From: an uncultured Candidatus Actinomarina sp.
GTDB lineage: Bacteria > Actinomycetota > Acidimicrobiia > Actinomarinales > Actinomarinaceae
NCBI GenBank assembly: GCA_902582695.1
Contig: CACHTH010000005.1
Coordinates: 4,955-68,954, forward strand
DNA length: 64,000 bases
Direction of reading: 5' to 3'
Below, piece by piece: positions 33,727-57,255 of the stretch (within the stretch, counting starts at the first letter, position 1; each line of letters begins with the position of its first letter). The notes under the pieces were generated by a model, which did not search any database, was not told where the DNA came from, and worked only from the letters and a program-made list of their open reading frames with translations. A program made the position numbers and the translations under genes.

Positions 33727-36035
33727 GTGAAAAAGTTAATTTAAATGTTAACGGTATAGAAATTGAGTCTGATCCTAATAAGTTATTAATTGAAGCATGT
33801 GAAGACTCTGGAATTCACATTCCAAGATTTTGTTGGCACAAACGCTTAGATCCCGTCGGCATGTGCAGAATGTGTCTAGTTGAAGTTGATACACCAAGAG
33901 GCAAAATGTTGGTGCCATCTTGCACAACTGAAGTTAGTGATGAAATGGTTGTTGATACAGAATCTGAAGTAGTAAAAAAAGCTCAAGAGGGAGTTCTTGA
34001 ATTTTTATTGATCAACCACCCTCTTGATTGTCCTATATGTGATAAAGCTGGAGAGTGTCCGCTTCAAGACCAAACAATGGCTTACGGCCCAGGAGAGAGT
34101 CGTTTTGTTGAGGAAAAAAGACATTTTGAAAAACCAATAAATATATCTGAAATAATATTGCTTGACCGAGAGAGGTGTATTTTATGTGCAAGATGTACAA
34201 GGTTCTCAGATGAAATTTCAGGTGATCCGTTAATTGAGTTTATCCAAAGAGGAAATAAAACAGAAGTTAATACTTTTCCAAATGAACCTTTTAAGTCATA
34301 CTTTTCAGGTAATACTGTTCAGATTTGTCCAGTTGGTGCTTTAACTTCTACATCTTATAGGTTTAAAGCAAGGCCTTGGGACCTAAAATCTACTAGATCA
34401 ACTTGCAACGGTTGTTCTATGGGTTGTTCAATAGAATTAAATTCATCACAAAATAAGATGTTAAGAATTCTTGGTGTTGATAATGACGCTGTTAATCAAG
34501 GATGGTTATGCGATAAAGGTCGATACAATTTTGAGTATTTGAATTCTGATTCAAGATTAAAAACACCCCTTAAAAAGATTGATAATGAATTAGTAGAAAT
34601 CGAAATTCAGGACGTATATTCTGAACTTTCAGAAATTATAAAAGACAGACAAACAAAAGTTAACTTTTTACTTGGTTCAAATTTAACAAACGAAGATTAT
34701 GTTGCATTTAGAGAATTTTCAGAGACTATTTCTCAATCTGAAAAAAGTTTTTATTTAAATGATGACATGTTGCACCCAGGACTTTTTGGTGAAAATGTAG
34801 AATTAGCTAAAATTGACGATTTAAACTCGTCTGACGCAATAGTTGTGTGGGCTGAAGATTTGAAAGAAAAAATTCCCGTTCTTTATTTAAGAATTCGCCA
34901 GGCAGTAAAAAATGGAGTTAAGTTAGTTGTTTTTGGCCATACGAATGAGACCTTAAGTGACATCGCACACGTATTTTATGGTAAAGAAATAGTCTCAGAA
35001 AATTTTGAAATAGTAAAAGATATTTCGAAATTGAAAGAAATTAAAGATTTAGTAATAGGTAAAAATATTACAGCAATTTTGGGTAAATCCACGCCACATC
35101 AGTCTGATGAAAGTATCACAAAATTATTTGAATTCTTAAATTCAAATTCAAATTCAAAAGTACTAAATGCCTATTCAAAAGGCAATACTTATGGAGCCTT
35201 TCAAACTTTAAAAAATGTAAAAGGACTAAATGATTTTGTTAATGACATTTCAGAAGAAAACACTGACATATTATTTATTGTTGGTGCAGATCCTGTTGGC
35301 CGCTCTGTTTATTCAAATCAAATAAAATCAATTATCGAAGGCCTTGATACAGTTGTAGCATTAGACAATTTCAATCATGAAACTTCAGAACTGGCTAACT
35401 TTGTGATACCAATGAGTTCAACACTCGGTGAAAAAGAAGGTACTTTTACAAATATTGAATTTAGAACTTCTCGCATAGATAAACTTGTCCCATCTCCAGG
35501 GCAAACTGTTAGTGATTGGGAATTTATAACCAGTCTAATGAATTTTGCAGGACTAAGAGTTGAGACAAATAGCTTAGAGAGCCTTAATAAAAAAGCTTAT
35601 GAAAATCTTGACCCTTCTTCAAGTCCAGTGTTTGATAATTTAGATAAACCATCAAATTTAGATGGAATGGTAAATGTTTATAAACCTAAAATTTCTTCTT
35701 CGGATAATAATTCAAATGAGTCCAAATTTTTTACTGGAGAAAAACTTTATGGGGATTCTGCTACTGAAAGACATTCCGATAGCATTTCTCTATTAGGTTC
35801 CAAAAAATACATTGAAGTAAGTGAAAGTGTAGTTGAAAAATATAATTTAACTTCAGGTAAATGTACATTAATTCAAGATGAAATTGAAGTTGCAGTTAGT
35901 TATGGAGTTAATAAAAGTTTTCCTAATGACCTAATTTATATTCCAACAAATAGAAGGGAGTTAAATAAGTTTGACTTCTCAAGGGAAATTATGATCATAC
36001 CTAGTCAGGTGAAAGAAGCATTAAATGTCAACTGA
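33723..36035 (+). CDS. nuoG: NADH-quinone oxidoreductase subunit G
   Basis: CWHKRLDPVGMCRMCLVEV, HPLDCPICDKAGECPLQD and CILCARCTRF are present. A molybdopterin-oxidoreductase-like domain follows. Length is 770 aa. Confidence 0.92.
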   Translation: MSEKVNLNVNGIEIESDPNKLLIEACEDSGIHIPRFCWHKRLDPVGMCRMCLVEVDTPRGKMLVPSCTTEVSDEMVVDTESEVVKKAQEGVLEFLLINHPLDCPICDKAGECPLQDQTMAYGPGESRFVEEKRHFEKPINISEIILLDRERCILCARCTRFSDEISGDPLIEFIQRGNKTEVNTFPNEPFKSYFSGNTVQICPVGALTSTSYRFKARPWDLKSTRSTCNGCSMGCSIELNSSQNKMLRILGVDNDAVNQGWLCDKGRYNFEYLNSDSRLKTPLKKIDNELVEIEIQDVYSELSEIIKDRQTKVNFLLGSNLTNEDYVAFREFSETISQSEKSFYLNDDMLHPGLFGENVELAKIDDLNSSDAIVVWAEDLKEKIPVLYLRIRQAVKNGVKLVVFGHTNETLSDIAHVFYGKEIVSENFEIVKDISKLKEIKDLVIGKNITAILGKSTPHQSDESITKLFEFLNSNSNSKVLNAYSKGNTYGAFQTLKNVKGLNDFVNDISEENTDILFIVGADPVGRSVYSNQIKSIIEGLDTVVALDNFNHETSELANFVIPMSSTLGEKEGTFTNIEFRTSRIDKLVPSPGQTVSDWEFITSLMNFAGLRVETNSLESLNKKAYENLDPSSSPVFDNLDKPSNLDGMVNVYKPKISSSDNNSNESKFFTGEKLYGDSATERHSDSISLLGSKKYIEVSESVVEKYNLTSGKCTLIQDEIEVAVSYGVNKSFPNDLIYIPTNRRELNKFDFSREIMIIPSQVKEALNVN

Positions 36036-37122
36036 ATTAATAATTGCATTAATTAAATCAAATATTGTTTTGGCTGTTTTGTTGACTAACACAATATTGT
36101 TGATATGGCTTGAAAGAAAATTAGTTGCTGGAATGCAGTCTAGAGTGGGGCCTGATAGAGCTGGTCCTTTTGGGATTTTACAAACTGTAGCAGATGCAAT
36201 TAAATTATTATTAAAAGAGCAAATCATGCCTCTAAAAGCTGATAGAGCAATGTATTTGTTGGCGCCAATAATTGCATTGGTACCATCATTTTTAATTTTC
36301 ATGATCATTCCATTGGGTCCGGACTTAAACATTGAAATTGGTGGTAAAGATTATATTGTTGATTTTGTTGGTGCAGACTTAAATGTAGGTGTTCTTTATT
36401 TCTTAGCTTTGTCATCAATTGCTGTATATAGTGTAGTTTTAGCTGGGTGGTCTTCTGGATCTAAATACCCACTTCTCGGCGGTGTTAGAGCATCCGCACA
36501 AATGATATCTTACGAGGCAGCTATGGGATTATCTTTAGTACCAGTAATCTTATATTCTGGTTCACTATCACTTGTAGATATAGTTAGTAGCCAATCCGGA
36601 AACTTATCGACAACAATTCCGATTCTTAGCTCAATTGTTTCATTTATTCCTAAATGGAATATTTTTCCTCAATTTATTGCATTTGGAATATTTTTCATAG
36701 CTGCTGTAGCTGAAGTAAACAGAGCCCCTTTTGACTTAGTCGAAGCAGAACAAGAATTGGTCGGAGGGTTTCATACAGAATACTCGGGATTCAGGTTTGC
36801 TATGTTTTTCTTGGCGGAATATATAAATATGTTCAACATGTGTGCAATTACTGCAACCTTTTTTCTAGGTGGGTGGCTTGGTCCTACTTTTGAGGGGATT
36901 TTGCCTCCAATAATATCTGCAATTATGCCAATAATTTGGTTAGGAGTTAAAACGTTTGCACTTTTATTCATATTTGTTTGGATAAGAGCCACATTACCAA
37001 GGCTTAGATATGATCAGTTGATGGAGCTTGGGTGGAAAAGGCTTATACCGGCATCTCTAGTTTGGCTTATTTTGTCCGCTATTGTTCTAGGATTAAGAGA
37101 GTTTGGTTTACCTTGGAGCTAA
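36025..37122 (+). CDS. nuoH: NADH-quinone oxidoreductase subunit H
   Basis: ERKLVAGMQSRVGP and EYSGFRFAMFFLAEYINM are present. A multi-TM protein of 365 aa. Confidence 0.93.
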   Translation: MSTELIIALIKSNIVLAVLLTNTILLIWLERKLVAGMQSRVGPDRAGPFGILQTVADAIKLLLKEQIMPLKADRAMYLLAPIIALVPSFLIFMIIPLGPDLNIEIGGKDYIVDFVGADLNVGVLYFLALSSIAVYSVVLAGWSSGSKYPLLGGVRASAQMISYEAAMGLSLVPVILYSGSLSLVDIVSSQSGNLSTTIPILSSIVSFIPKWNIFPQFIAFGIFFIAAVAEVNRAPFDLVEAEQELVGGFHTEYSGFRFAMFFLAEYINMFNMCAITATFFLGGWLGPTFEGILPPIISAIMPIIWLGVKTFALLFIFVWIRATLPRLRYDQLMELGWKRLIPASLVWLILSAIVLGLREFGLPWS

Positions 37123-37125
37123 GTT

Positions 37126-37740
37126 ATGAGTGACAGTTTTGGTTTAATAAAAGGATTGAAAGTAACTTTCAAAGAATTATTTAGAAAGTCAGTTACCGAC
37201 AAATATCCAAAAGAATTTAGAGAAAAGCCCCAAAGATTTCATGGTCGTCATGTTTTAAATAAGTATGAAGACGGCATGGAAAAGTGTATAGGTTGTGAGC
37301 TATGTGCAGGAGTTTGTCCAGCACAATGCATTTATGTTCGAGGAGAGGATAATCCAGAAGAGAACCCTGTAAGCCCAGGGGAGAGATACGGATTTATTTA
37401 TGAAATCAATATGCTCAGGTGTATTTACTGTGCGTTATGTGTGGAAGCCTGCCCAACTGAAGCAATCACTATGACTTCTCTTTTTGAGATGAGTGTTGCT
37501 AATAGGTCCGAGGCAATATTTGACAAAGAGGTATTAGTTGTAAAAGATGATGGAACTCCTAACACCCATGAGGAACAAACTAAGCTTACTAATTTTGATG
37601 ATTTGAATACATCTGATGGATGGATGAGAGCAACCTCTCCTAATGGAAATCCAAATTTTCAAAATGTTGTAAATTGGTCAGGTTCACTTGGAGTAGGAAA
37701 GAAACCTCCTGAAGAAGGACAGACATTGGAGGAAGAGTAA
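37126..37740 (+). CDS. nuoI: NADH-quinone oxidoreductase subunit I
   Basis: Two 4Fe-4S motifs are present: CIGCELCAGVCP and CIYCALCVEACP. Length is 204 aa. Confidence 0.93.
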   Translation: MSDSFGLIKGLKVTFKELFRKSVTDKYPKEFREKPQRFHGRHVLNKYEDGMEKCIGCELCAGVCPAQCIYVRGEDNPEENPVSPGERYGFIYEINMLRCIYCALCVEACPTEAITMTSLFEMSVANRSEAIFDKEVLVVKDDGTPNTHEEQTKLTNFDDLNTSDGWMRATSPNGNPNFQNVVNWSGSLGVGKKPPEEGQTLEEE

Positions 37741-37741
37741 G

Positions 37742-38269
37742 TTGGTTGAGGCGCTTTTATTCTTCGCTCCAGCAAGTCTCATTATCATAGGCGCACTCAT
37801 TGTTATATTTGCCAAAAACCCTGTACATAATGCTATGGGTTTAGTTATGACACTGGTTTCCTTAGCAATAATCTATATAACTTTAAATGCAACTTTTGTT
37901 GCAATGGTTCAAATGTTAGTTTATGCAGGAGCAGTTATGACTCTATTTTTGTTTGTGATAATGATGATTGGGGTAGATAAAAAAGAACAAACTACTGACT
38001 CTATTAAAGGTCAAACATTTTTAGTGAGTGGAGTATTTTTAATTCTCATTTCCCTTTTAGCATATGTTGCAATAAGTTCAGACTTCAAGTGGGATCTCTG
38101 GTTCCCACCTGTTGAGTTTGATGCAGAAGGTACACCACAATTAATTGCAGGCGCACTTTTTACAGAGTGGATATTTCCATTTGAAATCATTTCTTTACTT
38201 CTTATTGTTGCCACCGCTGCAGCTATAGCTTTAGCTTATGATACTAAGAAACGAAATACTAATGCTTGA
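37742..38269 (+). CDS. nuoJ: NADH-quinone oxidoreductase subunit J
   Basis: TTG start. A 5-TM protein with [18 protein letters not shown]. Length is 175 aa, in the expected operon position. Confidence 0.88.
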
Positions 38270-38570
38270 AGTAACTACCGATTGGTATCTTACACTTGCA
38301 GCGATTCTCTTTTCAATAGGGTTTCTAGGAATGATGATTAGAAAAAATGCTCTCATTATGTTTATGTGTATTGAATTAATGCTCAACGCAGTAAACCTAA
38401 CTTTTATTTCTGCATCAAAACATTTTGGACAGGTTGATGGTCAAGTCTTTGTATTTTTTGTTCTTGTAGTAGCAGCAGCTGAAGTAGTAGTTGGCCTTGC
38501 GATTATTGTTTCTATATTTAGAAAGCAGTCATCTGCATCAGTAGATGTATTGAATGTATCAAGAGGTTAA
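38262..38570 (+). CDS. nuoK: NADH-quinone oxidoreductase subunit K
   Basis: I preferred ATG 38262 (8-nt overlap with nuoJ) to the longer ORF-track start 38238. A 3-TM protein with [11 protein letters not shown] and [11 protein letters not shown]. Confidence 0.88.
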
Positions 38571-40473
38571 ATTGGAATTAATTTTTCTTCTCCCAATCTT
38601 TCTACCTTTTTTAACTGCTATCTTCCTTTTTCTAAACAAAAAATTATTTAATGAATTAATCACAAACTTTTTTACTTTAAATAGTGCACTCTTGTCATTT
38701 GCAATTGCAGCTTATTCATTCATTACCTTAGCGCTTGATAAATTTAAACCTGTAAACGTTGAGTTGTTTCAATGGATTTCTAATCCTGACATAAGCATTG
38801 GTTTTACTCTTGATGGACTATCTGGAATTATGCTGATCTTAGTAACTGGACTATCTTTTGTAATTCAACTTTTTTCTACTTCTTATATGGAAAAGGACGA
38901 AAATCATTGTAATTATTTTGTGTATTTTAACTTTTTTGTTTTTTCAATGTTACTTCTAGTCATGTCATCAAACTTCTTAGTGATGTTCTTTGGTTGGGAA
39001 TTAGTTGGTTTGAGTTCATATCTATTAATTTCATTTTGGTCTAAAAAACCAGCTGCTGCAAAAGCCGGTAATAAAGCATTTGTTATAAATAGAGTTGGGG
39101 ATTTTGGATTTTTAATTGGATTAATGATTATTTTAGATACTTTTAATACGTTTGATTTTTATAAAATTTTACAAAATACTACTGGAATAGCTGAGTCTAC
39201 TATTACCGCAATATCCCTCTTTTTATTGCTAGGTGCTTTTGGTAAATCCGCTCAATTCCCTCTTTTTAGTTGGCTTCCAGATGCCATGGAAGGTCCAACT
39301 CCTGCAAGCGCTCTTATTCACGCAGCCACAATGGTTACTGCAGGAGTGTTTATGCTTGTCAGGATATCTCCCTTATTACAACACTCAAAAATAGCTAGCT
39401 TATTGATTATAATTTTTGGACTTATAACGGCACTTCTTGCTGCATTTTCTGCCATAAATCAGTTTGATATCAAAAAGGTATTGGCATATTCAACAATTTC
39501 TCAGCTCGGATTTATGTTTATTGCAATTGGGGCAGGGGCTTATGTCGCTGCAATTTTTCATTTAGTCACTCATGCATTTTTTAAAGCACTTTTGTTTCTT
39601 GGCGCTGGTGCTGTTATTCACTCTATGCACCACGAACAGGATATCAGAAAAATGGGTGGACTTAGAAAAAAAATGCCAATTACTGCATCAATGATGGGAA
39701 TAGGAACTCTTGCAATATCAGGTATTCCTCCTCTTGCAGGTTTTTGGTCAAAAGATGAAATACTTGCTTCCGTTTTTGTAAATGGAGGTATTTATTATGT
39801 TTTTTGGGCTTTAGCATTAGGTGCGGCTTTTCTTACAGCATTCTATATGGGAAGACATTGGTTGCTAATTTTTGAAAAAGATAATGGTTTTGAACACTCA
39901 GATGTTGCTGAAGCACCAAAAGCAATGACGAGACCCCTGCTACTTTTAGGTATATTTTCTATATTTATTGGTTTTATAAATACACCATTTTTTCATGGTC
40001 TAGAAAAAGTTTTACACGTGACTTTAGAGAATGTTGAAGTAACGCATTTACCAAAGGGCATTACATTAGTTGTATTAGCAGTACTCTCTATTGGTGCTGG
40101 TTTCACAGGACTAATTATTGCTTTTCTCTTATTTGGAATGGAGCTTCATAAAAGAATTGACTTGAGAAAATTTAAACTTGAAAGTCCTATCAACCTAGTT
40201 AAAGATCTATCCTCAAATGTTTTATATTTAAATAAATTTGGTAATTTTTTCTTTGTCTCCGGCATGAAGAACCTTAGTCGCAAAGTAGCAGTTGTTGTTG
40301 ATGGAATGTTGATTGATGGATCTGTTAACTTTGTATCAACTGCATTTAATAAAAGTTCAAAAATTACATCTACAACTCAGACTGGTTTAGTGAGAAATTA
40401 TGTCGTTTATTTTGGTTTATTTTTACTACTTCTAATTGGATTGTTTATCGCTACATCATTGGTGCCAAGATGA
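38554..40473 (+). CDS. nuoL: NADH-quinone oxidoreductase subunit L
   Basis: [16 protein letters not shown] and [35 protein letters not shown] are present. Length is 639 aa. An alternative TTG start at 38572 follows AAGAGG. Confidence 0.92.
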
Positions 40474-41957
40474 TTTCTATTATGTTCTCTTTGTTATTAG
40501 TTCCACTTTTTAGTGCATTACTTATCTTTTTGATTCCAAATTCAAGAAAAGAGACATTTAGACCAATTGGAATTGCCTTTTCTTTAATAACGTTAACTCA
40601 ATGTGTTTATTTGCTATTTGGGGAATATGCAAAAACAGAATTTACAATTTTATCATCTTTTCAATGGATACAGTCTTATGGAATTAATCTACATTTCGGT
40701 CTCTCTGGAATGTCGACACTTTTGTTATTGCTTAGCTCATTATTAGTATTTGTTTCATTACTTTCTATTGGCAAAGATCACTCTGAAAGCAAAGGATTTG
40801 TTGGATCATTGTTAATGTTACATTTTGCAATCAATGGTGTATTTATTAGTGGTGATTTAATTTCATTATTTATATTTTTTGAGGCTTTACTTATTCCTAT
40901 GTATTTCCTAATGGGAATATGGGGAGGTGAGAATAGAAGATACGCAACTATAAAGTTCATTCTGTACACTGTTTTTGGTTCGGTATTTATTTTTATTGGA
41001 ACAGTTTACACAGCAGTATTAAGCTTTGGAGTTAATGGTAGGCTTGCTGTAGATTTTGAAACATTGTCTTCATTAAGTTTGCTTGAATCACAGTCAAAAA
41101 CTTTATTTTTATTATTTACATTTGGGTTTTTAATTAAAGTGCCTATATTTCCACTGCATACTTGGTTGCCAGATGCACACGTAGAAGCTCCAACTGCTGG
41201 AAGTATAATGTTGGCAGGAGTGCTTCTAAAAGTTGGTGCTTACGGAATACTAAGAGTGTCCATACCATTTTTTACAGAAGGTTTTTTAGCTTACAAAAAT
41301 CTGATTGCAATACTGTCTGTAATTGGAATTATTTATGGTGCTATTGTTGCCATTGCTCAGATCGATATCAAAAAGCTGATTGCTTATTCTTCAGTTAGCC
41401 ATATGGGATTTGTTATGCTTGGAATTTCAGCTGGTGGATTTTTAAGTATTGAGGGAGCAATCATACAAATGATAAATCACGGTATTACTGCAGGTGCTTT
41501 GTTTATGCTGGTTGGATTTATATACGAAAGAAGACATACTCGAAAAATTAGTGACTTTGGCGGAGTCAAGATATCTATGCCAAGGTATGCAGCAATATTT
41601 CTATTTACATCATTCGCCTCTATAGGCCTTCCTGGTTTAAATGGTTTTGTTGGAGAGTTCATGATTCTTATGGGAAGCTTTAACAGCTACAAAATTCTGA
41701 CATCCTTTGCAGCATTTGGTGTAGTTTTAGCTGCAATATATATGTTATGGGCATATCAAAGAATGTTTACTGGACCTATTAAATATGAAGAAAATGAAAG
41801 CTTAACTGATCTCAATTCCCGTGAAACAGCGTCAATAGCTCCATTAGTTTTATTAATGTTATTTATTGGAATTTATCCAAACTATATTGAGAGTTTTGTA
41901 ATTCAAGAGGCAAGTTTTTTGAGTGATACTATAGCAATGTTTAAGGACCTAAAATGA
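40470..41957 (+). CDS. nuoM: NADH-quinone oxidoreductase subunit M
   Basis: PLHTWLPDAHVEAPTAGSIMLAGVLLK is present. Length is 495 aa. Confidence 0.92.
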   Translation: MISIMFSLLLVPLFSALLIFLIPNSRKETFRPIGIAFSLITLTQCVYLLFGEYAKTEFTILSSFQWIQSYGINLHFGLSGMSTLLLLLSSLLVFVSLLSIGKDHSESKGFVGSLLMLHFAINGVFISGDLISLFIFFEALLIPMYFLMGIWGGENRRYATIKFILYTVFGSVFIFIGTVYTAVLSFGVNGRLAVDFETLSSLSLLESQSKTLFLLFTFGFLIKVPIFPLHTWLPDAHVEAPTAGSIMLAGVLLKVGAYGILRVSIPFFTEGFLAYKNLIAILSVIGIIYGAIVAIAQIDIKKLIAYSSVSHMGFVMLGISAGGFLSIEGAIIQMINHGITAGALFMLVGFIYERRHTRKISDFGGVKISMPRYAAIFLFTSFASIGLPGLNGFVGEFMILMGSFNSYKILTSFAAFGVVLAAIYMLWAYQRMFTGPIKYEENESLTDLNSRETASIAPLVLLMLFIGIYPNYIESFVIQEASFLSDTIAMFKDLK

Positions 41958-43426
41958 GAACAGTTTCTGAGATATTAGGAATAAATTATGTAGTAATTGC
42001 ACCTACATTGGCACTATTGCTGACAGTTATTGTTTTATTATTTTGCACAATTACCATTTCAACTCCAATGTACGTAAAAAAATATGTATCGTTTGTTGGA
42101 ATCTTGCTAACTTTATTTACAATATTTTTAAAGTTCGGTTTATTTCTAACTGATGGTGTCTCTTCTTATTTCACAGAAAAAATTCTTCTTGATGAGTTTG
42201 CCCTTGTTGGAAACGTACTTGTTGGAATGGTTTTGCTTTTTACTTTTAATTCTTTCTGGAAAACTTCAGAATTAATAGAAGACAAAACTACTGAAGCTTT
42301 AATACTAATTTTAATGTCTGCATCTGGATTTTTATTAATGATTGATGCTGAGAACTTCATAATGTTATTCATAGGTTTAGAAATTGGTTCAATTAGTTTA
42401 TATGCTTTAGCAGGACTTAACAGAGGAGATCAATTAAGTAATGAAGCTGCTTTGAAATATTTCTTACTTGGTTCACTTGCTTCGTGTATATTTGTATACG
42501 GTATTGCGTTAATTTATGTCTCACTATCAATAATTGGTGTATATGAAACTAGTATTGCAATTAGTTTCATAGGACCAGATAATGTTCCACTAACAACATT
42601 TGTTGGATTGATATTGATAACTGTTGGATTATTATTTAAAGTTGCAGCTGCACCTTTTCAAGCATGGGCACCAGACGTATACCAGGGTTCTCCTACTGGA
42701 TATGTGGGATATATGGCAACTGTTGCAAAGGTTTCATCATTCATAGTCCTTGCAAGACTTGTTGCAGTCTCTTTAACATTCATTATTGATCAATTTGATT
42801 TATTTTTTGGTGCCGTTGTAATCTTGTCAGTACTCGCTGGGGCTTTATTTGCTGCAAACCAAACTGATTTGAAAAGACTAATTGCTTATAGTGGAGTTAT
42901 TCAATCAGGCTTTATACTTTCTGGTATATCTTCAGGAGTTTATGGAATAAGTGCATCAACGTTTTATTTAATAACTTACATTATCCAATTAATTGGAATC
43001 TTTACAGTTTTTTCAATAATAAGCGGTCAATTGAGTTCGGACTTTCAAATCTCAAATATCTCAGGGTTATTTAAGGAAAATAAATTTATAACAATTACAT
43101 TTTCAATATTCATGCTTGGCCTTGCAGGATTACCATTAACAAGTGGATTCGTCTCGAAATTTATCCTTATTACCAATCTTTGGTCATATGAGAGATATAT
43201 ATTGGTAACAGTCTTAATGCTGACTACAGTTGCGGGATTTTATTTTTACTTACGACCAATTTGGGTAGCAGCAGTTGAGAAAACAGAAAATGTAGTTGAA
43301 AAAATACAGGTTAAAAACTCAGACAAACTACTACTAGGTTTATTGGCTGCTTTAACAATATATTTTGGATTACTTCCAGATACCCTTGTTAATATAACTC
43401 GCTGGATGGTCGAAGGTTATCTCTAA
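41954..43426 (+). CDS. nuoN: NADH-quinone oxidoreductase subunit N
   Basis: AAAPFQAWAPDVYQGSPT is present. Length is 490 aa, and it is the last gene of the operon. Confidence 0.92.
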   Translation: MRTVSEILGINYVVIAPTLALLLTVIVLLFCTITISTPMYVKKYVSFVGILLTLFTIFLKFGLFLTDGVSSYFTEKILLDEFALVGNVLVGMVLLFTFNSFWKTSELIEDKTTEALILILMSASGFLLMIDAENFIMLFIGLEIGSISLYALAGLNRGDQLSNEAALKYFLLGSLASCIFVYGIALIYVSLSIIGVYETSIAISFIGPDNVPLTTFVGLILITVGLLFKVAAAPFQAWAPDVYQGSPTGYVGYMATVAKVSSFIVLARLVAVSLTFIIDQFDLFFGAVVILSVLAGALFAANQTDLKRLIAYSGVIQSGFILSGISSGVYGISASTFYLITYIIQLIGIFTVFSIISGQLSSDFQISNISGLFKENKFITITFSIFMLGLAGLPLTSGFVSKFILITNLWSYERYILVTVLMLTTVAGFYFYLRPIWVAAVEKTENVVEKIQVKNSDKLLLGLLAALTIYFGLLPDTLVNITRWMVEGYL

Positions 43427-50034: not shown

Positions 50035-50460
50035 TAGTTACATGTTAACAGTAATTAACAAATAATGATATTTCTAAAATGCTGGGCAACCAACCGCGAA
50101 GGTCAATCCAAAAAAAAGTAACCAAATTACTGGTTCATATTTTCTTACAATCTTAGGGTCTTTTTGCATTATTAATATTTTACTATTTAATGTATAATAT
50201 CAGTAATATGATGTGTCCTTACGCTTACTTACTTGCTGGCTTTATGTGGTTTGTCCGCAATGGGGGAAAGTTTGTTTTAAGATCGTTTAATTTTAAAAGG
50301 CTTTCTAAATCAGGTAGCGTAAACTAATTTTCTCAACACAGTCAAATTTCTTAAACTTAAATCTGAATTCTATAAATTTTTAATTTTTTTTTAAATAAAT
50401 TAGCATTAACTTAAAATGTTAAGTAGTATTAACAAAGTAAATTTGAAATTTGAGGTAAAT

Positions 50461-51561
50461 GTGAATAAAAAATATATTTTAGTTTTAGTTGCTCTCACAA
50501 TAGTTTTATCGGCTTGTACTACTACAGCTGGTGAACGTGGTCCGGCTGGTGAACAAGGTCCAGCTGGAGAAGTCTCTCAAGAAGAAATTGAAGCTGCAGT
50601 TAATGCAGCATTAACCGAGGAAGAAGCAGAAGTAAGCGGGACGCTTGTCATCTATAGCGGAAGAAAAGAAAGTTTAGTATCAGAAATTATTGCTGAATTT
50701 GAATCTACTTCGGGGGTAACAGTCGAGGTAAGATATGCTAAAAGTGCGGAGTTAGCAGGAACTCTTAAACTTGAAGGCGCAATCAGTCCTGCTGATGTTT
50801 TCTTTTCTCAAGACCCAGTAAGTCTTGGAATTGTCGCCAAAGAAGGCCTGTTTGAGAGACTACCGGCTGATATTTTAGATAATGTTCCCGGCTGGGCTGT
50901 AGATAAAAATAATTACTGGGTGGGAACATCTGGTAGATCTAGAGCTCTAGTTGTTGATACTAGAGACGTTCAAGATTCGGAGTTGCCAAATGATATTTAT
51001 GGTCTTGCAGATGAAAAGTTTAGAAATCGATTAGGACTTGCTCCAACCAATTCTTCATTCATAGCAATGGTTGCTTGTATGGTTGAGTTGGACGGTGAAG
51101 AAAAAGTCTTAGAATGGCTAACCACCATAAATGGACTTGGATATGCTGAATATCCTAAAAACTCACCACAAGTTGCAGCTGCTGCAGCCGGTGAGCTAGA
51201 TATTGGAATGATTAATCACTATTACACATTGCGAGTGTTGGCTGAAAGCGGAAATGAGCCAATTAAGAATGTATATTTGGATGAAGGATGTGGAGCAATG
51301 GTTATGCCTGCTGGTGTTGGTATTTTGTCTTCAAGCCAAAATAAACCAGCAGCGTTAGCATTTATTGAATTCCTACATTCAAAAGCGGCTCAAGAAACAT
51401 TTACAAATACTGTTTACGAGTTCCCTCTTGTTACAGGTATTAAGCCTAATGCTTTGCTTCCAGACATTAATAGTTTGAACTCTCCTTCAAACCTAAATTG
51501 GTCAGCGTTATCTCTATGGCAGGAAAAAGCTGTAGAGTTGATTGCTCAGGCAGGATTTTGA
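50461..51561 (+). CDS. Fe(3+)-type ABC transporter substrate-binding lipoprotein (FbpA/AfuA-like)
   Basis: I chose GTG 50461 (VNKKYILVLVALTIVLSACTT, GAGG 5 nt upstream) over ATG 50416. LVIYSGRKESLVSEIIAEFESTSGVTVEVRY is typical of the family 1 iron-binding-protein N-terminus. Confidence 0.72.
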   Translation: MNKKYILVLVALTIVLSACTTTAGERGPAGEQGPAGEVSQEEIEAAVNAALTEEEAEVSGTLVIYSGRKESLVSEIIAEFESTSGVTVEVRYAKSAELAGTLKLEGAISPADVFFSQDPVSLGIVAKEGLFERLPADILDNVPGWAVDKNNYWVGTSGRSRALVVDTRDVQDSELPNDIYGLADEKFRNRLGLAPTNSSFIAMVACMVELDGEEKVLEWLTTINGLGYAEYPKNSPQVAAAAAGELDIGMINHYYTLRVLAESGNEPIKNVYLDEGCGAMVMPAGVGILSSSQNKPAALAFIEFLHSKAAQETFTNTVYEFPLVTGIKPNALLPDINSLNSPSNLNWSALSLWQEKAVELIAQAGF

Positions 51562-51662: not shown

Positions 51663-53219
51663 GTGAAGGCACCAAAACCTCTGATAGTAACAAATACTTT
51701 TATTTTAATTTTATTTTTGATGCCTATTTTTTATATGTTTTGGCGTTTTGCAAATTTTTCAAAAAATTTGTCTGAATTTTTACAATCATGGGATGTTCTT
51801 ACATTATTTTTGAATACAATATTTTTATTTATTGCAGTAATTCTTACAAGCCTATTTTTAGGTTTATTAATTTCTATTCTTATTGTTCGATATGAAATTC
51901 CTGCTTCTAAGTTATTGTTTACTCTTACAATTTTACCTTTAGTAATACCGTCTTACATAGGTGCTTTAACATATGTTTCAGCATTTTCACCAAGGGGATT
52001 ATTTGTAGATATTTTTTCAAGTTTTGGGATAAATGAAATATCTGGAATTGATGGTTTTATTGGAAGCTGGATTGTACTTACTTTGTTTACTTATCCATAT
52101 GTTCAATTAATTTGCAGTAGTGCACTTAGAAATTTAGATTCAACAGTTGAAGATGCTGCTAGGTCACTTGGAGTTAAAAAAATAAAGATGTATAGCAGTA
52201 TTGTTTTACCAAGATTAAAAAAACCTATTATTTATTCATCTCTTTTAGTTGGATTGTATGTAATTTCTGATTTTGGTGCTGTTTCTTTAATGAAATATGG
52301 AACATTAACAAAGGCAATTTACTCTTATTACACAATAAATATAAATGGTGATCCTGTAATTTTTTATTCGACCTTGTTGATATTTATTGCTTTAATAATC
52401 AGTTTTGCTCAAAGGGGAAGTGAATTAAGTAGGTCAGCTAAAGTTTCTGGAACACCAAGAGAAATTGTAAAAGCTAAATTGTCTCACAAAAATAAAGTTT
52501 TAGTTTTAGCATTTTTTGCTTTAGTTATTTTATTCAGTTTAGTTATACCAATAAGTGTTCTTTCCTATTGGTTAATTCGAGGTATGTCACAAGGCAATGC
52601 TGTTAATAACGTTCTATCAGGCGTAGTTGGATCACTAACAGCAGCTACTGTAACTTCAATATTTGCAATGATTATTGCTACTCCAATAGTTATAATGATT
52701 TCTCAATATAGATCAAAATTTGGTGATTTATTCGAAAAAGTAACCCTTACTTTATATGGGCTTCCTCATATTGCTGTAGGAATTTCAATGTTGTTTATAA
52801 CTATTAAAATTGTTCCAGCGATTTATCAAACTTTTACAACACTTATAATCTCATACTTAATAGTTTTTTTACCTCAAGCTGTTGGAGGAGGACAAGCGTC
52901 AATGGAACAAGTGAAACTATCCTATATTGAAGCAAGTTCTGGCCTTGGTTTTTCAAAGATGGAAACATTTATAAAAATTACATTTCCACTTATTTACAAA
53001 GGATTATTAGCTGGTGCAGCTTTAGTTTTTCTTTCAACAATGAAAGAGTTACCGCAAACCTTACTACTGCGTCCAACCGGCTTTAGCACTATGGCTGTTG
53101 ACATATGGTCTAACGCTTCTGAAGCTTTATTTACACAAGCAGCATTTTCTGCATTTATTTTGTTAGCAATTAGCGCACTTCCTACATATATACTTAGTAC
53201 TAGAAATTTAACAAACTAA
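51663..53219 (+). CDS. Fe(3+)-type ABC transporter permease (fused double domain, FbpB-like)
   Basis: GTG start. A 518-aa protein with about 12 TM helices and two EAA-type loops (VEDAARSLGVKK and IEASSGLGFSK). Confidence 0.8.
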   Translation: MKAPKPLIVTNTFILILFLMPIFYMFWRFANFSKNLSEFLQSWDVLTLFLNTIFLFIAVILTSLFLGLLISILIVRYEIPASKLLFTLTILPLVIPSYIGALTYVSAFSPRGLFVDIFSSFGINEISGIDGFIGSWIVLTLFTYPYVQLICSSALRNLDSTVEDAARSLGVKKIKMYSSIVLPRLKKPIIYSSLLVGLYVISDFGAVSLMKYGTLTKAIYSYYTININGDPVIFYSTLLIFIALIISFAQRGSELSRSAKVSGTPREIVKAKLSHKNKVLVLAFFALVILFSLVIPISVLSYWLIRGMSQGNAVNNVLSGVVGSLTAATVTSIFAMIIATPIVIMISQYRSKFGDLFEKVTLTLYGLPHIAVGISMLFITIKIVPAIYQTFTTLIISYLIVFLPQAVGGGQASMEQVKLSYIEASSGLGFSKMETFIKITFPLIYKGLLAGAALVFLSTMKELPQTLLLRPTGFSTMAVDIWSNASEALFTQAAFSAFILLAISALPTYILSTRNLTN

Positions 53220-54244
53220 TGGCATTTGAAAATTTAATTATACGAGCAAGATCAGTAACAAAGTCTTACGAAAAAGAGACTGTTTTGTCAGATTTTAATT
53301 TGGACGTTTGGAATGGATCAATTGTTGGCGTGTTGGGAATGTCAGGCTCAGGAAAAACTACTGCATTAAGATTAATTGCTGGATTTGAAAAACCAGACTC
53401 TGGTTTAATAGAAATGAGAAATCAAATCATTTCAAGCGATGAAGTTTTTGTACCTCCTGAAGATAGAAATGTTGGTATGGTTTTCCAAGACTATGCATTA
53501 TTTCCACATCTAGATGTTGAAAAAAATATATCTTTTGGACTTTCCAAAAATGAAATAAATGAAGGAAGATTAGAAGAAGTTTTAGAAATGTGTAATTTAG
53601 AAAATTATAAAAATAAATATCCTCAAGAACTATCTGGTGGTCAACAACAAAGAGTTGCACTTGCAAGGGCGATAGCTCCCGGTCCGGAAGTAATTCTTCT
53701 AGATGAGCCATTTACAAGCTTAGATGCACATATGGCCAGGGAATTAAGAGACGAAGTAGTTTATCTCTTAAGAAAAACTGAGACTACTGCGATAATTGTA
53801 ACTCATGATCAAGAGGAAGCATTGTCAGTGTGCGATGTAGTTAGTGTGTTAGAAAATGGAACAGTTATACAAAGCGCTACGCCGCAAGAAATTTATTTAA
53901 ATCCAGTTAGCCAAACTGTGGCGAACTCTGTAGGTGACCCCAATATATTAAAGGGCTACTCAGTTAACGGTAGAGTTGAGACATCTTTAGGAACTTTTGT
54001 ATCTGCTTATGATGGTGCTTTAGATGTATCAATTAGACCTGAGTGTATTGAACTCACTTTAGATTCAGACGGAAGTTACTTGGTTAAAGAATGTACCTTC
54101 TATGGCCATGATCAGGTAATATCATTCCAAAATAGTAAAGGTGAAGTTTTTAGAGCACGTTCTTTACCTAATACAATATTTGAATCTGGCGATAAGGTAA
54201 ATATAAATATTTCAGAGGTTACAACATTCCCCTCAAAGGCTTGA
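53219..54244 (+). CDS. Fe(3+)-type ABC transporter ATP-binding protein (FbpC-like)
   Basis: GMSGSGKTT, LSGGQQQRVALARA and ILLDEPFTSLD are present, plus a C-terminal TOBE-like domain. Length is 341 aa. Its start overlaps the permease stop (TAATG). Confidence 0.88.
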   Translation: MAFENLIIRARSVTKSYEKETVLSDFNLDVWNGSIVGVLGMSGSGKTTALRLIAGFEKPDSGLIEMRNQIISSDEVFVPPEDRNVGMVFQDYALFPHLDVEKNISFGLSKNEINEGRLEEVLEMCNLENYKNKYPQELSGGQQQRVALARAIAPGPEVILLDEPFTSLDAHMARELRDEVVYLLRKTETTAIIVTHDQEEALSVCDVVSVLENGTVIQSATPQEIYLNPVSQTVANSVGDPNILKGYSVNGRVETSLGTFVSAYDGALDVSIRPECIELTLDSDGSYLVKECTFYGHDQVISFQNSKGEVFRARSLPNTIFESGDKVNINISEVTTFPSKA

Positions 54245-54427
54245 TTTAATATAAGAAACTCTTCCTGCAAGAGATTGTAATTCAATTTCAAGTTCCGAAA
54301 GCTTTGAAGTAGCACGGGCATAATCTCCCTCTGCTATATATTCCCTAGAATTTGCAAGAGACTTAATTAATGTGTCCATATCAAAAATTAGTGATTCAAT
54401 TTCTGAAAAAATTAATTGTTTATCCAT
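54233..54427 (-). CDS. hypothetical 64-aa helical (coiled-coil-like) protein, divergent from the heliorhodopsin gene
   Basis: MDKQLIFSEIESLIFDMDTLIKSLANSREYIAEGDYARATSKLSELEIELQSLAGRVSYIKSSL. A 64-codon open frame is unlikely by chance in AT-rich DNA because stop codons are frequent. There is no Shine-Dalgarno sequence. Its 3' end overlaps fbpC by 12 nt (convergent). Confidence 0.5.
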   Translation of the reverse strand: MDKQLIFSEIESLIFDMDTLIKSLANSREYIAEGDYARATSKLSELEIELQSLAGRVSYIKSSL

Positions 54428-54480
54428 GATTTAATATTAATTAGAAAACTAAACTTAGCTTACTGATTTAAAGAGGGAGC

Positions 54481-55284
54481 ATGGAAACAAAAATTCAAAA
54501 ATTAAAAAAGTTTAACTTAATTATGGGAACAGTCCATCTTATTCAGGGAGGGCTTTTATTTTGGCTTGGAACAGTTGTTAATTCAGATTTTGTTGTTCCA
54601 ATAACCTTGACTCAACTTGTTGGAGTTGGCTCTCCTAATGATCCATCAAGCTTTGCTCTTGTTCCAGAATTAGAAATTTGGACAGAAGTTACAAATTTTG
54701 GTCCAGCAGTTGCAACTTTCTTACTTGCGTCAGCTGTCGCTCACTATTTAATTTCCGGTCCTTTTTATAAAAAGTACAAAGAAGACTTATCAAAAGGAAT
54801 AAATAAGGTCAGATGGATTGAATACTCTATAAGTGCATCAGTCATGATTGTTCTTATTGCACTTTTAGTTGGCATCTATGATATTTGGGCATTAGCTGGA
54901 ATATTTTTTATGAACGCAGCTATGTGTTGGTTTGGATGGATGATGGAAGTTCACAATCAGTACACAGAAAAAGTTGATTGGACAAGCTACATAATGGGTT
55001 GCCTAGTTGGTGTTGCCCCTTGGATTTTTATATTTATTAATCTAATAGGTGATGGGGTAGCAACTGACTCTAATCCCCAAGGAGTTCCACAATTTGTTGT
55101 TTGGATTTTTGTTAGTATATTTTTATTCTTTAATACCTTTTCAATAAATATGATTTTGCAATATAAGCAAGTAGGTAAATGGAAAGACTATCTATACGGT
55201 GAAAGAGCTTACATTTGGTTAAGCTTGCTTGCTAAGACTTGTCTTGCATGGCAAGTCTTTTTTGGAACATACCAACCGAATTAA
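54481..55284 (+). CDS. heliorhodopsin (7-TM retinal-binding protein, inverted topology family)
   Basis: A 267-aa protein with 7 TM helices. The blocks FNLIMGTVHLIQ, SAVAHYLIS, RWIEYSISASVMIVLIA, FLFFNTFS and GERAYIWLSLLAKTCLAWQVF match, from memory, heliorhodopsin 48C12 (…FNRIAGVFHLLQ…, …RWVEYSLSSSVMIVLIA…, …GERAYIVLSLVAKSALAWQIF…). Lys252 is the predicted Schiff-base lysine and Glu114 the predicted counterion. Confidence 0.87.
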   Translation: METKIQKLKKFNLIMGTVHLIQGGLLFWLGTVVNSDFVVPITLTQLVGVGSPNDPSSFALVPELEIWTEVTNFGPAVATFLLASAVAHYLISGPFYKKYKEDLSKGINKVRWIEYSISASVMIVLIALLVGIYDIWALAGIFFMNAAMCWFGWMMEVHNQYTEKVDWTSYIMGCLVGVAPWIFIFINLIGDGVATDSNPQGVPQFVVWIFVSIFLFFNTFSINMILQYKQVGKWKDYLYGERAYIWLSLLAKTCLAWQVFFGTYQPN

Positions 55285-55359
55285 ATACTTATTTAATTTT
55301 TTTTCCAAAAAATATAAGCAGGATAATTATTAAAAATAAACCAATATAAGAAAGCGCCA

Positions 55360-56154
55360 TTAGTTTTTAGATCTAAATTTTCTAAATCCTAATACTAGCA
55401 ACAACAACGGAACTGCAATTATTCCAAAAGATACTACAAAACCAATAATTGATTCAATCCAATTTAATGCTCTTTGAACATAATAATTCCATGAAAACAG
55501 CGATACTCCAGAACCCTCTCTAATATCTAATGTCAAAGATGAGTACGATACTGAATTTTCATAATATTCTTTTTGTCCTTCCAAAACTTGAATGTCTTGA
55601 TTTATGTAACGAAGTTGAGACTGCACTTGAAGCTTATCTGATGTCGATACAGCTTCTGCTTTAATTTCTTCAAGTGCTTCCTTCTCATCATTTAATGATT
55701 TCAATCTTGAATCTATATCAAGAACATATTTTGTTACATCATTTGCATTTAAATTTATGTTTGTAAACTTTGAAATATCCTCTACTGCCTTTAGAAAACT
55801 CTCAAAATCCTCAGCTGGAATATTCATAGTTAAGTTATAACTTTTAAGTCCTTGGTAATTTGTTGAAAGATACGTATTAGAAATATTTCCATTGAAATTC
55901 TTTACCAAGAGTTCTACTTCATCAATTGTATTTTCAAAATTAGATGAACTAACGTCTGTGCTTGCATAAGCAGTCTTAATGATATAGTCACCTTGTGAAA
56001 AAGAAGATTCTCTTGAGAAAGCTACTTCAGAAGTAGCCATATCTTCTACTCCTCCAAAATACGGCTCAGGAGCTCCCATTGTCATTTCACTGGACTGGGA
56101 ACAAAAAGAAAATGTTAACAGAAGAAGCAAAATTTTTAAATTTTTCACACTCAT
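55360..56154 (-). CDS. DUF4349-like lipoprotein with C-terminal TM anchor
   Basis: It has a signal plus lipobox (LLLLLTFSFCSQ). The central region NANDVTKYVLDIDSRLKSLNDEKEALEE resembles the DUF4349 pattern (DVT..y.D...RL). It has a C-terminal TM helix and a basic tail. Length is 264 aa. Confidence 0.6.
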   Translation of the reverse strand: MSVKNLKILLLLLTFSFCSQSSEMTMGAPEPYFGGVEDMATSEVAFSRESSFSQGDYIIKTAYASTDVSSSNFENTIDEVELLVKNFNGNISNTYLSTNYQGLKSYNLTMNIPAEDFESFLKAVEDISKFTNINLNANDVTKYVLDIDSRLKSLNDEKEALEEIKAEAVSTSDKLQVQSQLRYINQDIQVLEGQKEYYENSVSYSSLTLDIREGSGVSLFSWNYYVQRALNWIESIIGFVVSFGIIAVPLLLLVLGFRKFRSKN

Positions 56155-56166
56155 AGTATAAGTAAC

Positions 56167-57255
56167 TTAGAAGTTAGAGAATTCAATAATTGGAATTTTT
56201 AACTCCTCTTCGGATATTCCTCCATGGTAACCCTTTAATTTTGCCGAAAGATGTTTTGGATATACGATATTTTTATCTTCAACTAAAAAACAAAAATCAG
56301 GATAAATTGACTGCAAAAATTCATCTATTGGATCTCCTAGAAGATAAGACAAATCATGTTGCTCCAATAAAACACCTGGTATTTCAGAAAAAGTTTCTAA
56401 AACATTTTCTTTAGCCCCATTTATATAAACTGAACGTTGGTCTCCGTATATTTGTAGGTCATCACCATAATTCAAATGATGACGAAATTCATCGTTAATA
56501 TTTACAAGACCGTGATCAGCAGAAATTATTGTTTTTGTTTTTTTGTTACTAATATTTGAAATCTCATTAACCAATTTTTCAAATTTAGTTATTTCAATTT
56601 GCCACTCATCTGAATTCACTCCAAATATATGGGCTGTAACGTCAATTAATGGATAGTAGATAAAATTAAACCTATTTTCTAAAATCGAAGAATCTGATAA
56701 CAACTCTAAAAGACTTTGTGCATCATCATAAGGAATAGTATTCGATTGCTCATACAAAAAATTTGATAGTGGACTTCCAACCAAGTTTCTAGGTTGAAAA
56801 TTCGAAGCATAAATTTTGTTGTCTTTAAAAATTTTCCAAATTGAACTTTGTTTTTGATAATAATTATTTGATAATAAATTTTTATTATCCTCATTCCAAT
56901 TTAAAGCATTTATGATGCCATATTTTGATTTGTCATACATGTAATATCCTATCAAACCATGTTCAATTGGATTCTTTATGAAGGATATTGATGATAAGGC
57001 AACGTTAGTTGATGAAGGAAATGTTGTATTAATAGATTGAGTAACGTTCTTATTCAATGAAGAATCTGTACTGCTTAGATTTTTATAACCCAGACCATCA
57101 GCCAGTATGAAGTTTATAGTATCTGCTTCGTAAAGGTCTTGTGACAAAAGTTCAAATCTTGTATCTATTTCAACTTTGTCACGAACTACTGCTTTAAATA
57201 TTTCTTTCGAAAGATCTATTAGGTTAGGTTCTTGTAAAAAATTTTTATTAATCAC
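56167..57255 (-). CDS. alkaline-phosphatase-superfamily metalloenzyme (nucleotide pyrophosphatase/phosphodiesterase-like)
   Basis: The AP-superfamily motif set appears in order: ILADGLG (metal Asp), TTFPSST (nucleophile region), IDVTAH, ISADHGL and KGYHGG. Length is 362 aa with no signal peptide. Confidence 0.72.
   Translation of the reverse strand: MINKNFLQEPNLIDLSKEIFKAVVRDKVEIDTRFELLSQDLYEADTINFILADGLGYKNLSSTDSSLNKNVTQSINTTFPSSTNVALSSISFIKNPIEHGLIGYYMYDKSKYGIINALNWNEDNKNLLSNNYYQKQSSIWKIFKDNKIYASNFQPRNLVGSPLSNFLYEQSNTIPYDDAQSLLELLSDSSILENRFNFIYYPLIDVTAHIFGVNSDEWQIEITKFEKLVNEISNISNKKTKTIISADHGLVNINDEFRHHLNYGDDLQIYGDQRSVYINGAKENVLETFSEIPGVLLEQHDLSYLLGDPIDEFLQSIYPDFCFLVEDKNIVYPKHLSAKLKGYHGGISEEELKIPIIEFSNF

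Follow-up and report, generated by a model that had tools for sequence, protein, structure and literature searches.

A heliorhodopsin gene of Candidatus Actinomarina set alone between small opposite-strand genes, and its possible role as a partner-binding photoreceptor

What could a heliorhodopsin (HeR) do in a marine lineage reported to lack retinal synthesis, and can the genes that surround it tell? The question is raised by a stretch of 64,000 nucleotides from an uncultured Candidatus Actinomarina sp. (contig CACHTH010000005.1), which we analyzed at its full length and call the window. At 54481..55284 on its plus strand lies an intact open reading frame (ORF) of 267 amino acids (aa) plus stop, opening with ATG. 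An earlier account made from the letters alone, which we call the sequence-only reading, took this ORF for a protein with seven transmembrane helices, and its coordinates, its start codon and the peptides quoted from it are all correct. We find that the ORF is almost certainly a functional heliorhodopsin gene of Candidatus Actinomarina. It is far beyond a chance reading frame, as judged by its profile matches, its phmmer hits and its ratio of nonsynonymous to synonymous substitution rates (dN/dS), and it displays all the defining HeR features that can be checked in silico. As for its function, we favor a slow-cycling photoreceptor that would bind a partner protein, use scavenged retinal and be encoded by a monocistronic gene; taken whole, this statement has in our view a probability of roughly 0.55.

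The family assignment agrees across several kinds of evidence. The Pfam profile Heliorhodopsin (PF18761), the sole meaningful Pfam match of the ORF, is reached with 295.8 bits against a cut-off of 26.7 (E-value 2.8e-88), residues 8-263 covering profile positions 1-241 of 242. The equivalog model NF038020 of NCBIfam ("heliorhodopsin HeR") gives 311.2 bits against a cut-off of 100 (E-value 4.9e-93). Searching the PDB with phmmer returns TaHeR as the best match (5.7e-67), followed by 48C12 (~1.5e-56). In the Pfam search the type-1 profile Bac_rhodopsin (PF01036) has no match in the ORF even at E<=1. The same distinction emerges from the fold. Modeled with AlphaFold2 from an alignment of 50 sequences, the protein has seven helices, and the model reaches a mean predicted local distance difference test score (pLDDT) of 90.9 and a predicted template modeling score (pTM) of 0.84. 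When the model is compared with the PDB by Foldseek, the top 10 matches are all HeRs (E-values 5e-23 to 4e-17, template modeling [TM] scores 0.79-0.93). TaHeR (6is6) is matched with TM scores of 0.88/0.93 and a root-mean-square deviation of 2.1 A, and 48C12 with about 0.81/0.85, whereas the best type-1 rhodopsins appear at E-values of ~4e-4, with TM scores of 0.5-0.7 and 9-15% identity. The earlier claim that this is a heliorhodopsin and not a type-1 rhodopsin is thus borne out by both profiles and fold.

The residues expected to hold the chromophore are in place. We took the correspondences with 48C12 from the alignment printed by phmmer and from a MAFFT alignment, and the four pairs named in the sequence-only reading hold in both. 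On the plus strand, His19 (codon 54535..54537) matches 48C12 His23 and His88 (54742..54744) matches His80. Glu114 (GAA, 54820..54822), the predicted Schiff-base counterion, matches Glu107 of 48C12 and Glu108 of TaHeR, and Lys252 (AAG, 55234..55236), the predicted retinal Schiff-base lysine, matches Lys241. The codons assigned to the glutamate and the lysine were also right, and the two residues lie in helix C and in the seventh helix (helix G), respectively, as had been anticipated. His19 is invariant in the 53 Actinomarinales and 27 other HeR loci, His88 and Glu114 are invariant in 80/80 loci, and Lys252 is present in every locus covering the position. Six further residues, N12, S84, Y99, N108, Y115 and S248, stand for 48C12 N16, S76, Y92, N101, Y108 and S237 and are likewise invariant in the 80 loci. 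Within the order, N12, H19, Q22, S84, H88, Y99, N108, W112, E114, Y115, E156, S248, K252 and W257 do not vary across the 53/53 orthologues. Set against the list of polar Schiff-base cavity residues given by Kovalev et al. 2020, the window HeR retains the single glutamate counterion, both histidines (His19 and His88) and, in the cytoplasmic cavity, the other polar positions as well. Two positions follow TaHeR and not 48C12: Met224 replaces the Gln213 of 48C12, and Ala119 its Ser112. Since Gln213 is almost fully conserved in the 48C12 subfamily 1 (Kovalev et al. 2020), the window HeR probably lies outside that subfamily.

Two other sets of residues bear on the functional readings discussed below. 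One is the motif that lines the lateral fenestration and the proposed carotenoid site, described in a preprint by Kornilov et al. 2025 (in 48C12 numbering) as an aromatic pair at 162/206, small residues at 166/210, Gly169 and Asn207. The motif is intact in the window HeR, as Y170/F217, C174/S221, G177 and N218. The other is the F-G loop, the third cytoplasmic loop (ICL3), at residues 228-242 (55162..55206, +), which carries K229, K233, K235, D236 and R242, charges that are conserved across the order. By spacing, not by alignment, K229, K233 and D236 resemble the partner-binding K216, K220 and D223 of the ICL3 of AbHeR, and K229/K233/K235/D236 match R229/R233/R235/D236 of OcHeR. This charge pattern is near-universal among HeRs and hence has little power to discriminate between functional models.

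The predicted topology is the inverted one typical of HeRs. The helices of the model span residues 2-32, 73-92, 109-129, 135-160, 168-190, 204-228 and 237-263, with K252 within the last. The N terminus and the B-C, D-E and F-G loops together carry 15 lysines and arginines; the C terminus and the other three loops (A-B, C-D and E-F) carry no such residue, and their charges are acidic only. The positive-inside rule therefore predicts a cytoplasmic N terminus and an external C terminus, in line with the orientation that the sequence-only reading expected, and 48C12 has the same positive-inside, negative-outside pattern (Kovalev et al. 2020). The A-B loop (residues 34-72; 54580..54696, +), which has no lysine or arginine and five acidic residues and is hence predicted to be extracellular, is modeled as a beta hairpin (DSSP strands 38-49 and 59-71), and the model also has a short helix in the B-C loop. 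Pro40, described as highly conserved across the family (Kovalev et al. 2020), is nearly invariant in our multiple alignment. The A-B loop has 39 residues, compared with 29-34 in most other HeRs, and the E-F loop (55045-55092) has 16, compared with 9-13. The length of both extended extracellular loops is invariant within Actinomarinales.

The gene is well kept across its order. Our scan for homologues, with one genome per species, retrieved 241 stretches encoding relatives. The best of these is 100% identical (contig CACHJT010000001.1, Candidatus Actinomarina sp. SAG AG-911-M23), and there are 53 full-length Actinomarinales HeR loci at 83-100% identity, plus a fragment at a contig end at 94%. 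Within the order, the length of 267 aa is constant over the 53 orthologues, which all stand at the same genomic position; beyond it, identity falls to ~50% (archaea, Patescibacteria, Firmicutes and other Actinomycetota). Of 12 orthologues compared with the window HeR, 8 give a dN/dS of 0.03-0.06 and the other 4 have a synonymous divergence too saturated for an estimate; the gene is under strong purifying selection. A purine-rich stretch resembling a Shine-Dalgarno sequence, AGAGGGAG (54472..54479, +), which would serve translation of the HeR, lies just 5' of the ATG and is kept in orthologous loci. The G+C content of the window is ~33%, similar to that reported for the genus Actinomarina in a 2026 preprint. 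The literature states that HeRs are restricted to monoderms, and the host here, Candidatus Actinomarina (Actinomycetota), is one. The fragment at a contig end (L054, JAQBWI010000065.1) is an observation apart: this 6.3-kb contig is binned as "Proteobacteria bacterium" and carries the Actinomarina afuABC-orf64-HeR arrangement with a HeR 94% identical to ours. It is most likely a mis-binned Actinomarina contig, and reports of HeRs from metagenome-assembled genomes of diderms should be read with such cases in mind.

Where would the chromophore come from? Besides the HeR, the window has 56 large ORFs; we inspected all their translations and ran Pfam or NCBIfam on the neighbors of the HeR and on the ambiguous ORFs. 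There are no crtB, crtI, crtY, blh or type-1 rhodopsin genes within the 64 kb, which upholds the earlier statement on the four biosynthetic genes. Two isoprenoid genes are present: a polyprenyl diphosphate synthase of the long-chain type (3835-4818, -), whose best models are nona- and heptaprenyl synthases, and a flavoprotein of the geranylgeranyl reductase family related to MenJ (27835-29100, +; Pfam/NCBIfam). Both are likely menaquinone genes. The window also has housekeeping genes, the two nuo operons described below, several ABC systems and a DtxR-type repressor. For the genome-wide absence of retinal genes we rely on Lopez-Perez et al. 2020 (PMC7771536), our own check being that of the window: Actinomarinales are reported there without retinal synthesis, making neither retinal nor carotenoids, and their genomes retain a type-1 proton pump, which likewise requires retinal. 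The suggestion that the chromophore source lies elsewhere agrees with this report. In an order without retinal biosynthesis the HeR would have to load scavenged all-trans retinal, and the retention of the pump makes scavenging the parsimonious reading.

The surroundings of the gene have been described before. Lopez-Perez et al. 2020 placed the HeR between two nuo operons and beside a ferric ABC importer, noted that one nuo copy lacks EFG and compared the key residues of Actinomarinales HeRs with those of 48C12. Bulzu et al. 2021 (bioRxiv 10.1101/2021.02.01.429150, mSphere 2021) defined an Actinomarinales-only cluster, C11, always found after afuABC and before an 11-subunit complex I, and the gene appears in the 2026 preprint as "a heliorhodopsin of unknown function." The gene, its neighborhood and the missing retinal pathway were thus already published in 2020-2021, and this is no new kind of object. 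Our additions are minor: the flanking small ORFs, a backbone that lacks the HeR, the longer extracellular loops and the intact fenestration motif.

We compared the neighbor proteins of the window with all retrieved HeR loci by tblastn. Wherever the flank suffices, the order is fixed: solute-binding protein, double permease, ATPase, orf64 (-), HeR, DUF4349 (-), a phosphodiesterase-family gene (-) and nuoA-B-C-D of the second nuo operon, the DUF4349 gene being missing from 20 loci. No part of this arrangement adjoins the HeR genes of other lineages. This conserved order in all Actinomarinales loci retrieved, together with the 100% identity to AG-911-M23, supports the earlier description of an actinobacterial core-genome region. 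Two small ORFs on the opposite strand flank the HeR directly. Upstream, across a 53-bp spacer, lies orf64 (54233..54427, -), a divergently oriented helical orphan of 64 aa that shares 12 nt at its 3' end with the ABC ATPase gene. Intact orf64-like ORFs (51-73 aa) occur in 50 of the 52 loci with enough upstream flank, with a dN/dS of 0.10-0.41. Downstream, a hydrophobic single-helix mini-ORF of 23 aa, MALSYIGLFLIIILLIFFGKKIK (55289..55360, -), converges on the HeR, the two stops being 4 nt apart. It recurs in 53/53 Actinomarinales loci with an unchanging length of 23 aa, and it is translationally coupled to the DUF4349 gene, whose stop its ATG overlaps (TAATG).

The two small ORFs also occur together on a backbone without the HeR. 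Two short metagenomic contigs (L082 and L083; 33% GC) carry a diverged version of the region with no HeR between the mini-ORF and the orf64-like gene. There (about 850-1136 in L082), the 23-aa ORF immediately precedes the orf64-like gene; both are on one strand, which converges on afuC, and a low-molecular-weight phosphatase gene stands further along in place of DUF4349. This arrangement indicates a single-gene insertion or deletion of the HeR. In Actinomarinales the HeR stands as a lone, oppositely oriented gene between two small neighbors that, without it, are directly adjacent. Since the flanking ORFs are on the opposite strand, and are contiguous with each other on the HeR-less backbone, a monocistronic HeR is likelier than a unit running from afuABC through the HeR to nuo, and a functional tie to the iron importer, argued from adjacency, loses weight. 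Scans with consensus patterns found no promoter-like site in the 53-bp spacer upstream of the HeR and, around the gene, a single terminator-like match, inside the HeR coding sequence.

We had considered both small ORFs as dedicated companions of the HeR and rejected both. As a HeR-specific partner or transducer, orf64 fails: its most distant relative stands on the HeR-less backbone, still convergent on afuC, so that it tracks the backbone. Nor is the 23-aa mini-ORF HeR-specific, being found in the same HeR-less contigs beside the orf64-like gene. Independently of the HeR, orf64 is a lineage-restricted protein with a conserved core (KSLA.SRE.I.E...AG+); among 1.84 billion representative proteins no more than 13 are related to it, and we found no Pfam or NCBIfam family for it.

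The function that we favor would work as follows. The HeR would load all-trans retinal scavenged from seawater, probably through the lateral fenestration, an opening found in TaHeR and 48C12 (Kovalev et al. 2020) and put forward as the retinal entry route (Shihoya 2019, as cited in later work). To judge by the residues, the retinal would form a protonated Schiff base, countered by one glutamate, within a protein of inverted orientation. Green light would be absorbed and lead to a long-lived state with no ion transport. The signal would then be passed by contact of the lysine-rich cytoplasmic loops, chiefly F-G (K229/K233/K235/D236), with a partner protein, and by analogy with three other bacterial HeRs the activity of the bound partner could be raised in the light. 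The gene would be transcribed alone, outside any operon with the iron importer or the 11-subunit complex I.

The analogy rests on three systems. AbHeR binds and light-regulates glutamine synthetase, and this binding depends on the positive charges of the third cytoplasmic loop (PMC9529153); TfHeR binds and light-regulates a photolyase, depending on two basic residues, R162 and K227 (PMC9769723); and OcHeR binds and light-regulates the ABC exporter OmrDE, where such charges are needed for binding too (PMC11109279). The statement that the physiological role of HeRs is unresolved, made in the sequence-only reading, is thus partly outdated. According to Cho et al. 2024, the partner genes of helper HeRs belong to ten recurrent neighbor types in the same operon.

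Several points weigh against this account. In the literature searched we found no experiment on any Actinomarinales HeR, and chromophore binding, absorption, photocycle and the lack of transport are carried over by homology at 44-47% identity. In the window, the genes for glnA, photolyase and a half-transporter ABC exporter are not beside the HeR; the photolyase adjoins the type-1 rhodopsin instead (PMC7771536). The positive charges of ICL3 that helper HeRs share are present here, but they are conserved in nearly all HeRs and do not discriminate. Finally, Kornilov et al. 2025 argue that HeRs are primarily light harvesters with two antennae. Given that the known partner genes are not adjacent and that the charge pattern is near-universal, we put the central part of the account, in which the window HeR would act, by analogy, as a partner-binding regulatory photoreceptor, at even odds.

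The proposal of Kornilov et al. 2025 leads to the first alternative, in which the HeR harvests light with an exogenous xanthophyll, bound at the fenestration, as second antenna, or serves as an enzyme acting in its cavity (Kovalev et al. 2020), or both. The window HeR would be suited to either role, with its carotenoid-site motif fully kept and its polar cavity residues invariant, and a host that makes neither retinal nor carotenoids (PMC7771536) would depend on external pigments. However, the motif is carried by ~91% of HeRs and says nothing specific about this one, and the case for carotenoid binding is made, in the portions of the preprint consulted, from docking, comparison of structures and lipids ordered in the crystal (both points from Kornilov et al. 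2025). In the literature searched, no HeR has been shown to act as an enzyme, and the antenna leaves the use of the absorbed energy unstated. We regard this alternative as unlikely.

A second alternative takes the neighbors at face value. Bulzu et al. 2021 proposed that the afuABC, HeR and nuo genes form one transcriptional unit, and the HeR would then be a light switch for the adjoining ferric importer, for the 11-subunit complex I or for both. In its favor, the order of solute-binding protein, permease, ATPase, HeR and, further on, nuoA2B2C2D2 is invariant in all Actinomarinales loci with enough flank, as the literature also reports, and an interaction between a HeR and an ABC transporter has been demonstrated once, OcHeR raising the activity of an ABC exporter in the light (PMC11109279). 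Yet Actinomarinales genomes are highly syntenic (PMC7771536), and conserved adjacency within this one order therefore carries little weight. The association is absent in 26/26 HeR loci of other lineages (L055-L080). We had looked for it outside the order by tblastn of the solute-binding protein, the permease and the ATPase against these loci from other phyla and rejected it, as the search gave generic ABC ATPase similarity only, 2-8 kb away. Conserved opposite-strand genes part the HeR from afuC (orf64) and from nuoA (the 23-aa ORF, DUF4349 and the phosphodiesterase-like gene), and the backbone of afuC, orf64 and the 23-aa ORF exists without the HeR in L082/L083. OcHeR, the demonstrated case, acts on an exporter of type I whose domains are fused, whereas the importer here depends on a binding protein. 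Moreover, the rule of Bulzu et al. that only opposite-strand genes vary is not strict: a plus-strand quinone oxidoreductase gene is missing in many loci, and two minus-strand genes, orf64 and the phosphodiesterase-like one, are kept in almost all loci that extend over them. We find a co-transcribed switch slightly more doubtful than the antenna or enzyme. A looser version would have the HeR regulate, in response to light, iron acquisition, the 11-subunit and possibly F420-linked complex I, or both; in a variant, the conserved 23-aa membrane peptide next to the 3' end of the gene would be a membrane partner. Our evidence weakens these readings, although physical interaction needs no co-transcription, and we judge them improbable. 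Were the former true, daylight would be coupled to iron import or respiration in one of the ocean's most abundant photoheterotrophs.

Two further alternatives can be dealt with briefly. A light-gated proton channel or transporter like the viral V2HeR3 would belong to the same family, some viral members of which have been shown to transport. To be of this type the window HeR would be expected to have the pocket of viral subfamily 2, with histidines at 48C12 positions 162 and 166 (Kovalev et al. 2020) and a lost fenestration motif (Kornilov et al. 2025). It has Y170 and C174 there and keeps G177, F217, N218 and S221. Its membrane-embedded carboxylates are E114 and E156 only, and its closest solved relative is TaHeR. 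To our knowledge, neither TaHeR nor 48C12 showed ion transport at first characterization, and we consider a channel very improbable here. A relic that never receives its chromophore, suggested by the retinal synthesis genes reported absent from the order (PMC7771536) and lacking in the window, is scarcely credible for a gene with the selection, the constant length and the invariant chromophore pocket described above.

The partner-binding photoreceptor is the reading that we favor. The neighbors of the gene deserve a description of their own. The importer comprises the solute-binding protein (50416-51561), the double permease (51663-53219) and the ATPase (53219-54244), all on the plus strand and known in the literature as the ferric-iron AfuABC. 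Its Pfam matches are SBP_bac_11/6/8/1, BPD_transp_1 twice and ABC_tran, with TOBE_2 below threshold (17.5 versus a cut-off of 21 bits). No NCBIfam equivalog reaches its cut-off, the best for the solute-binding protein being 2-aminoethylphosphonate-type models with 45 bits against a cut-off of ~390. As no specific NCBIfam model applies, the iron assignment rests on KEGG-type annotation and on the DtxR neighbor. The HeR region sits between two operons for complex I: a complete nuoA-N at 29180-43426, and a second one from 57337 to beyond 62202 (nuoA, B, C, D, H, I, J, K...) without nuoEFG. Both have been described in the literature, with a possible F420 link. Before the second stands a gene for a phosphodiesterase-like protein of 362 aa (56167-57255, -). 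With 49 bits on Pfam Phosphodiest it falls in the alkaline-phosphatase/phosphodiesterase superfamily, and NCBIfam gives it no specific assignment; it is conserved across the loci and also in L082.

Upstream of the importer, the 380-bp spacer between the DtxR-like gene and the gene for the solute-binding protein (50035-50415) holds two divergent, conserved mini-ORFs. One, on the minus strand (50074-50169), encodes 31 aa, MQKDPKIVRKYEPVIWLLFFGLTFAVGCPAF, which end in GCP[AL]F and are predicted to form one helix; its variable sites fall 12/6/27 by codon position. The other, on the plus strand (50208-50327), encodes 34-39 aa beginning MMCPYAYLLAGFMWFVRNGGKF, with 10/10/29. Neither has a Pfam, NCBIfam or Rfam match, and both are kept even in loci without dtxR or with an inserted ferrochelatase gene. 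An initial periodicity test of the spacer had been flat. We dropped the idea of a noncoding RNA, as there was no Rfam match and reading the alignment on the minus strand gave the two mini-ORFs; we also rejected a ferrochelatase remnant, as tblastn found no match. Between the stop of the 31-aa mini-ORF and the start of dtxR, a 19-nt motif, ATGTTAACAGTAATTAACA (50042-50060), which includes the palindrome GTTAAC, is conserved in most dtxR-bearing loci and may be an operator site. In 28/53 loci (e.g., L006, 4825-5859) a gene of 344 aa, absent from the window, lies between dtxR and the gene for the solute-binding protein. By its N-terminal sequence we take it to be the ferrochelatase reported at this locus. 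The dtxR gene itself is missing in five loci (L019, L022, L024, L025 and L052). With these two genes coming and going, the "iron cluster" is variable within the genus.

What follows from this locus is modest. HeRs are widespread and their function is known for few members; any role in Actinomarina, an abundant marine bacterium, would be ecologically relevant. The window does not make the question of what HeRs do in abundant marine bacteria more testable; its HeR is a clean and well-supported candidate for expression, in a gene that standard annotation models find. Because the backbone is conserved and the gene stands in it as a lone insert, the search for a partner should not lean on the neighboring iron transporter or nuo genes.

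How does this HeR compare with the systems already known? With the C11 cluster, or "Ca. Actinomarinales heliorhodopsin," it shares the family, the organisms and the position, after afuABC and between the 14-subunit and the 11-subunit nuo operons. We see no substantive difference; orf64, the 23-aa ORF and the HeR-less backbone are not mentioned in the available portions of those papers. Among the helper HeRs, AbHeR, TfHeR and OcHeR belong to the same family and also have a positively charged cytoplasmic face, with Gln230 in the window HeR at the position of AbHeR K217. They differ in their setting: their partner gene is co-operonic, whereas the window HeR has no adjoining gene on its strand and the known partner genes are not nearby. 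Of the recurrent neighbor types, no glnA, photolyase, nadE, MerR, TerC, SDR, DUF2177 or DUF2238 gene is adjacent to it. With 48C12, the founding HeR from a freshwater actinobacterial fosmid (PDB 6su3, 6su4, 6uh3 and 9ljj), it shares 44-46% identity and the same Schiff-base cavity residues, and it departs from it at Met224. Although both hosts are Actinobacteria, 48C12 is more distant from it than an archaeal protein. This protein is TaHeR of a Thermoplasmatales archaeon (PDB 6is6, 7clj and 7u55), the closest relative in both sequence (47% identity) and structure. The two share the counterion glutamate, the Schiff-base lysine and the histidine pair, the methionine and alanine at the positions of Gln213 and Ser112, and a tyrosine at the aromatic position of the fenestration (Y164 in TaHeR, Y170 here), and the host of TaHeR is also said to be without retinal synthesis (Shihoya 2019). 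The window HeR differs from TaHeR in its bacterial host and in its longer loops, 39 versus ~30 residues in A-B and 16 versus ~8-11 in E-F.

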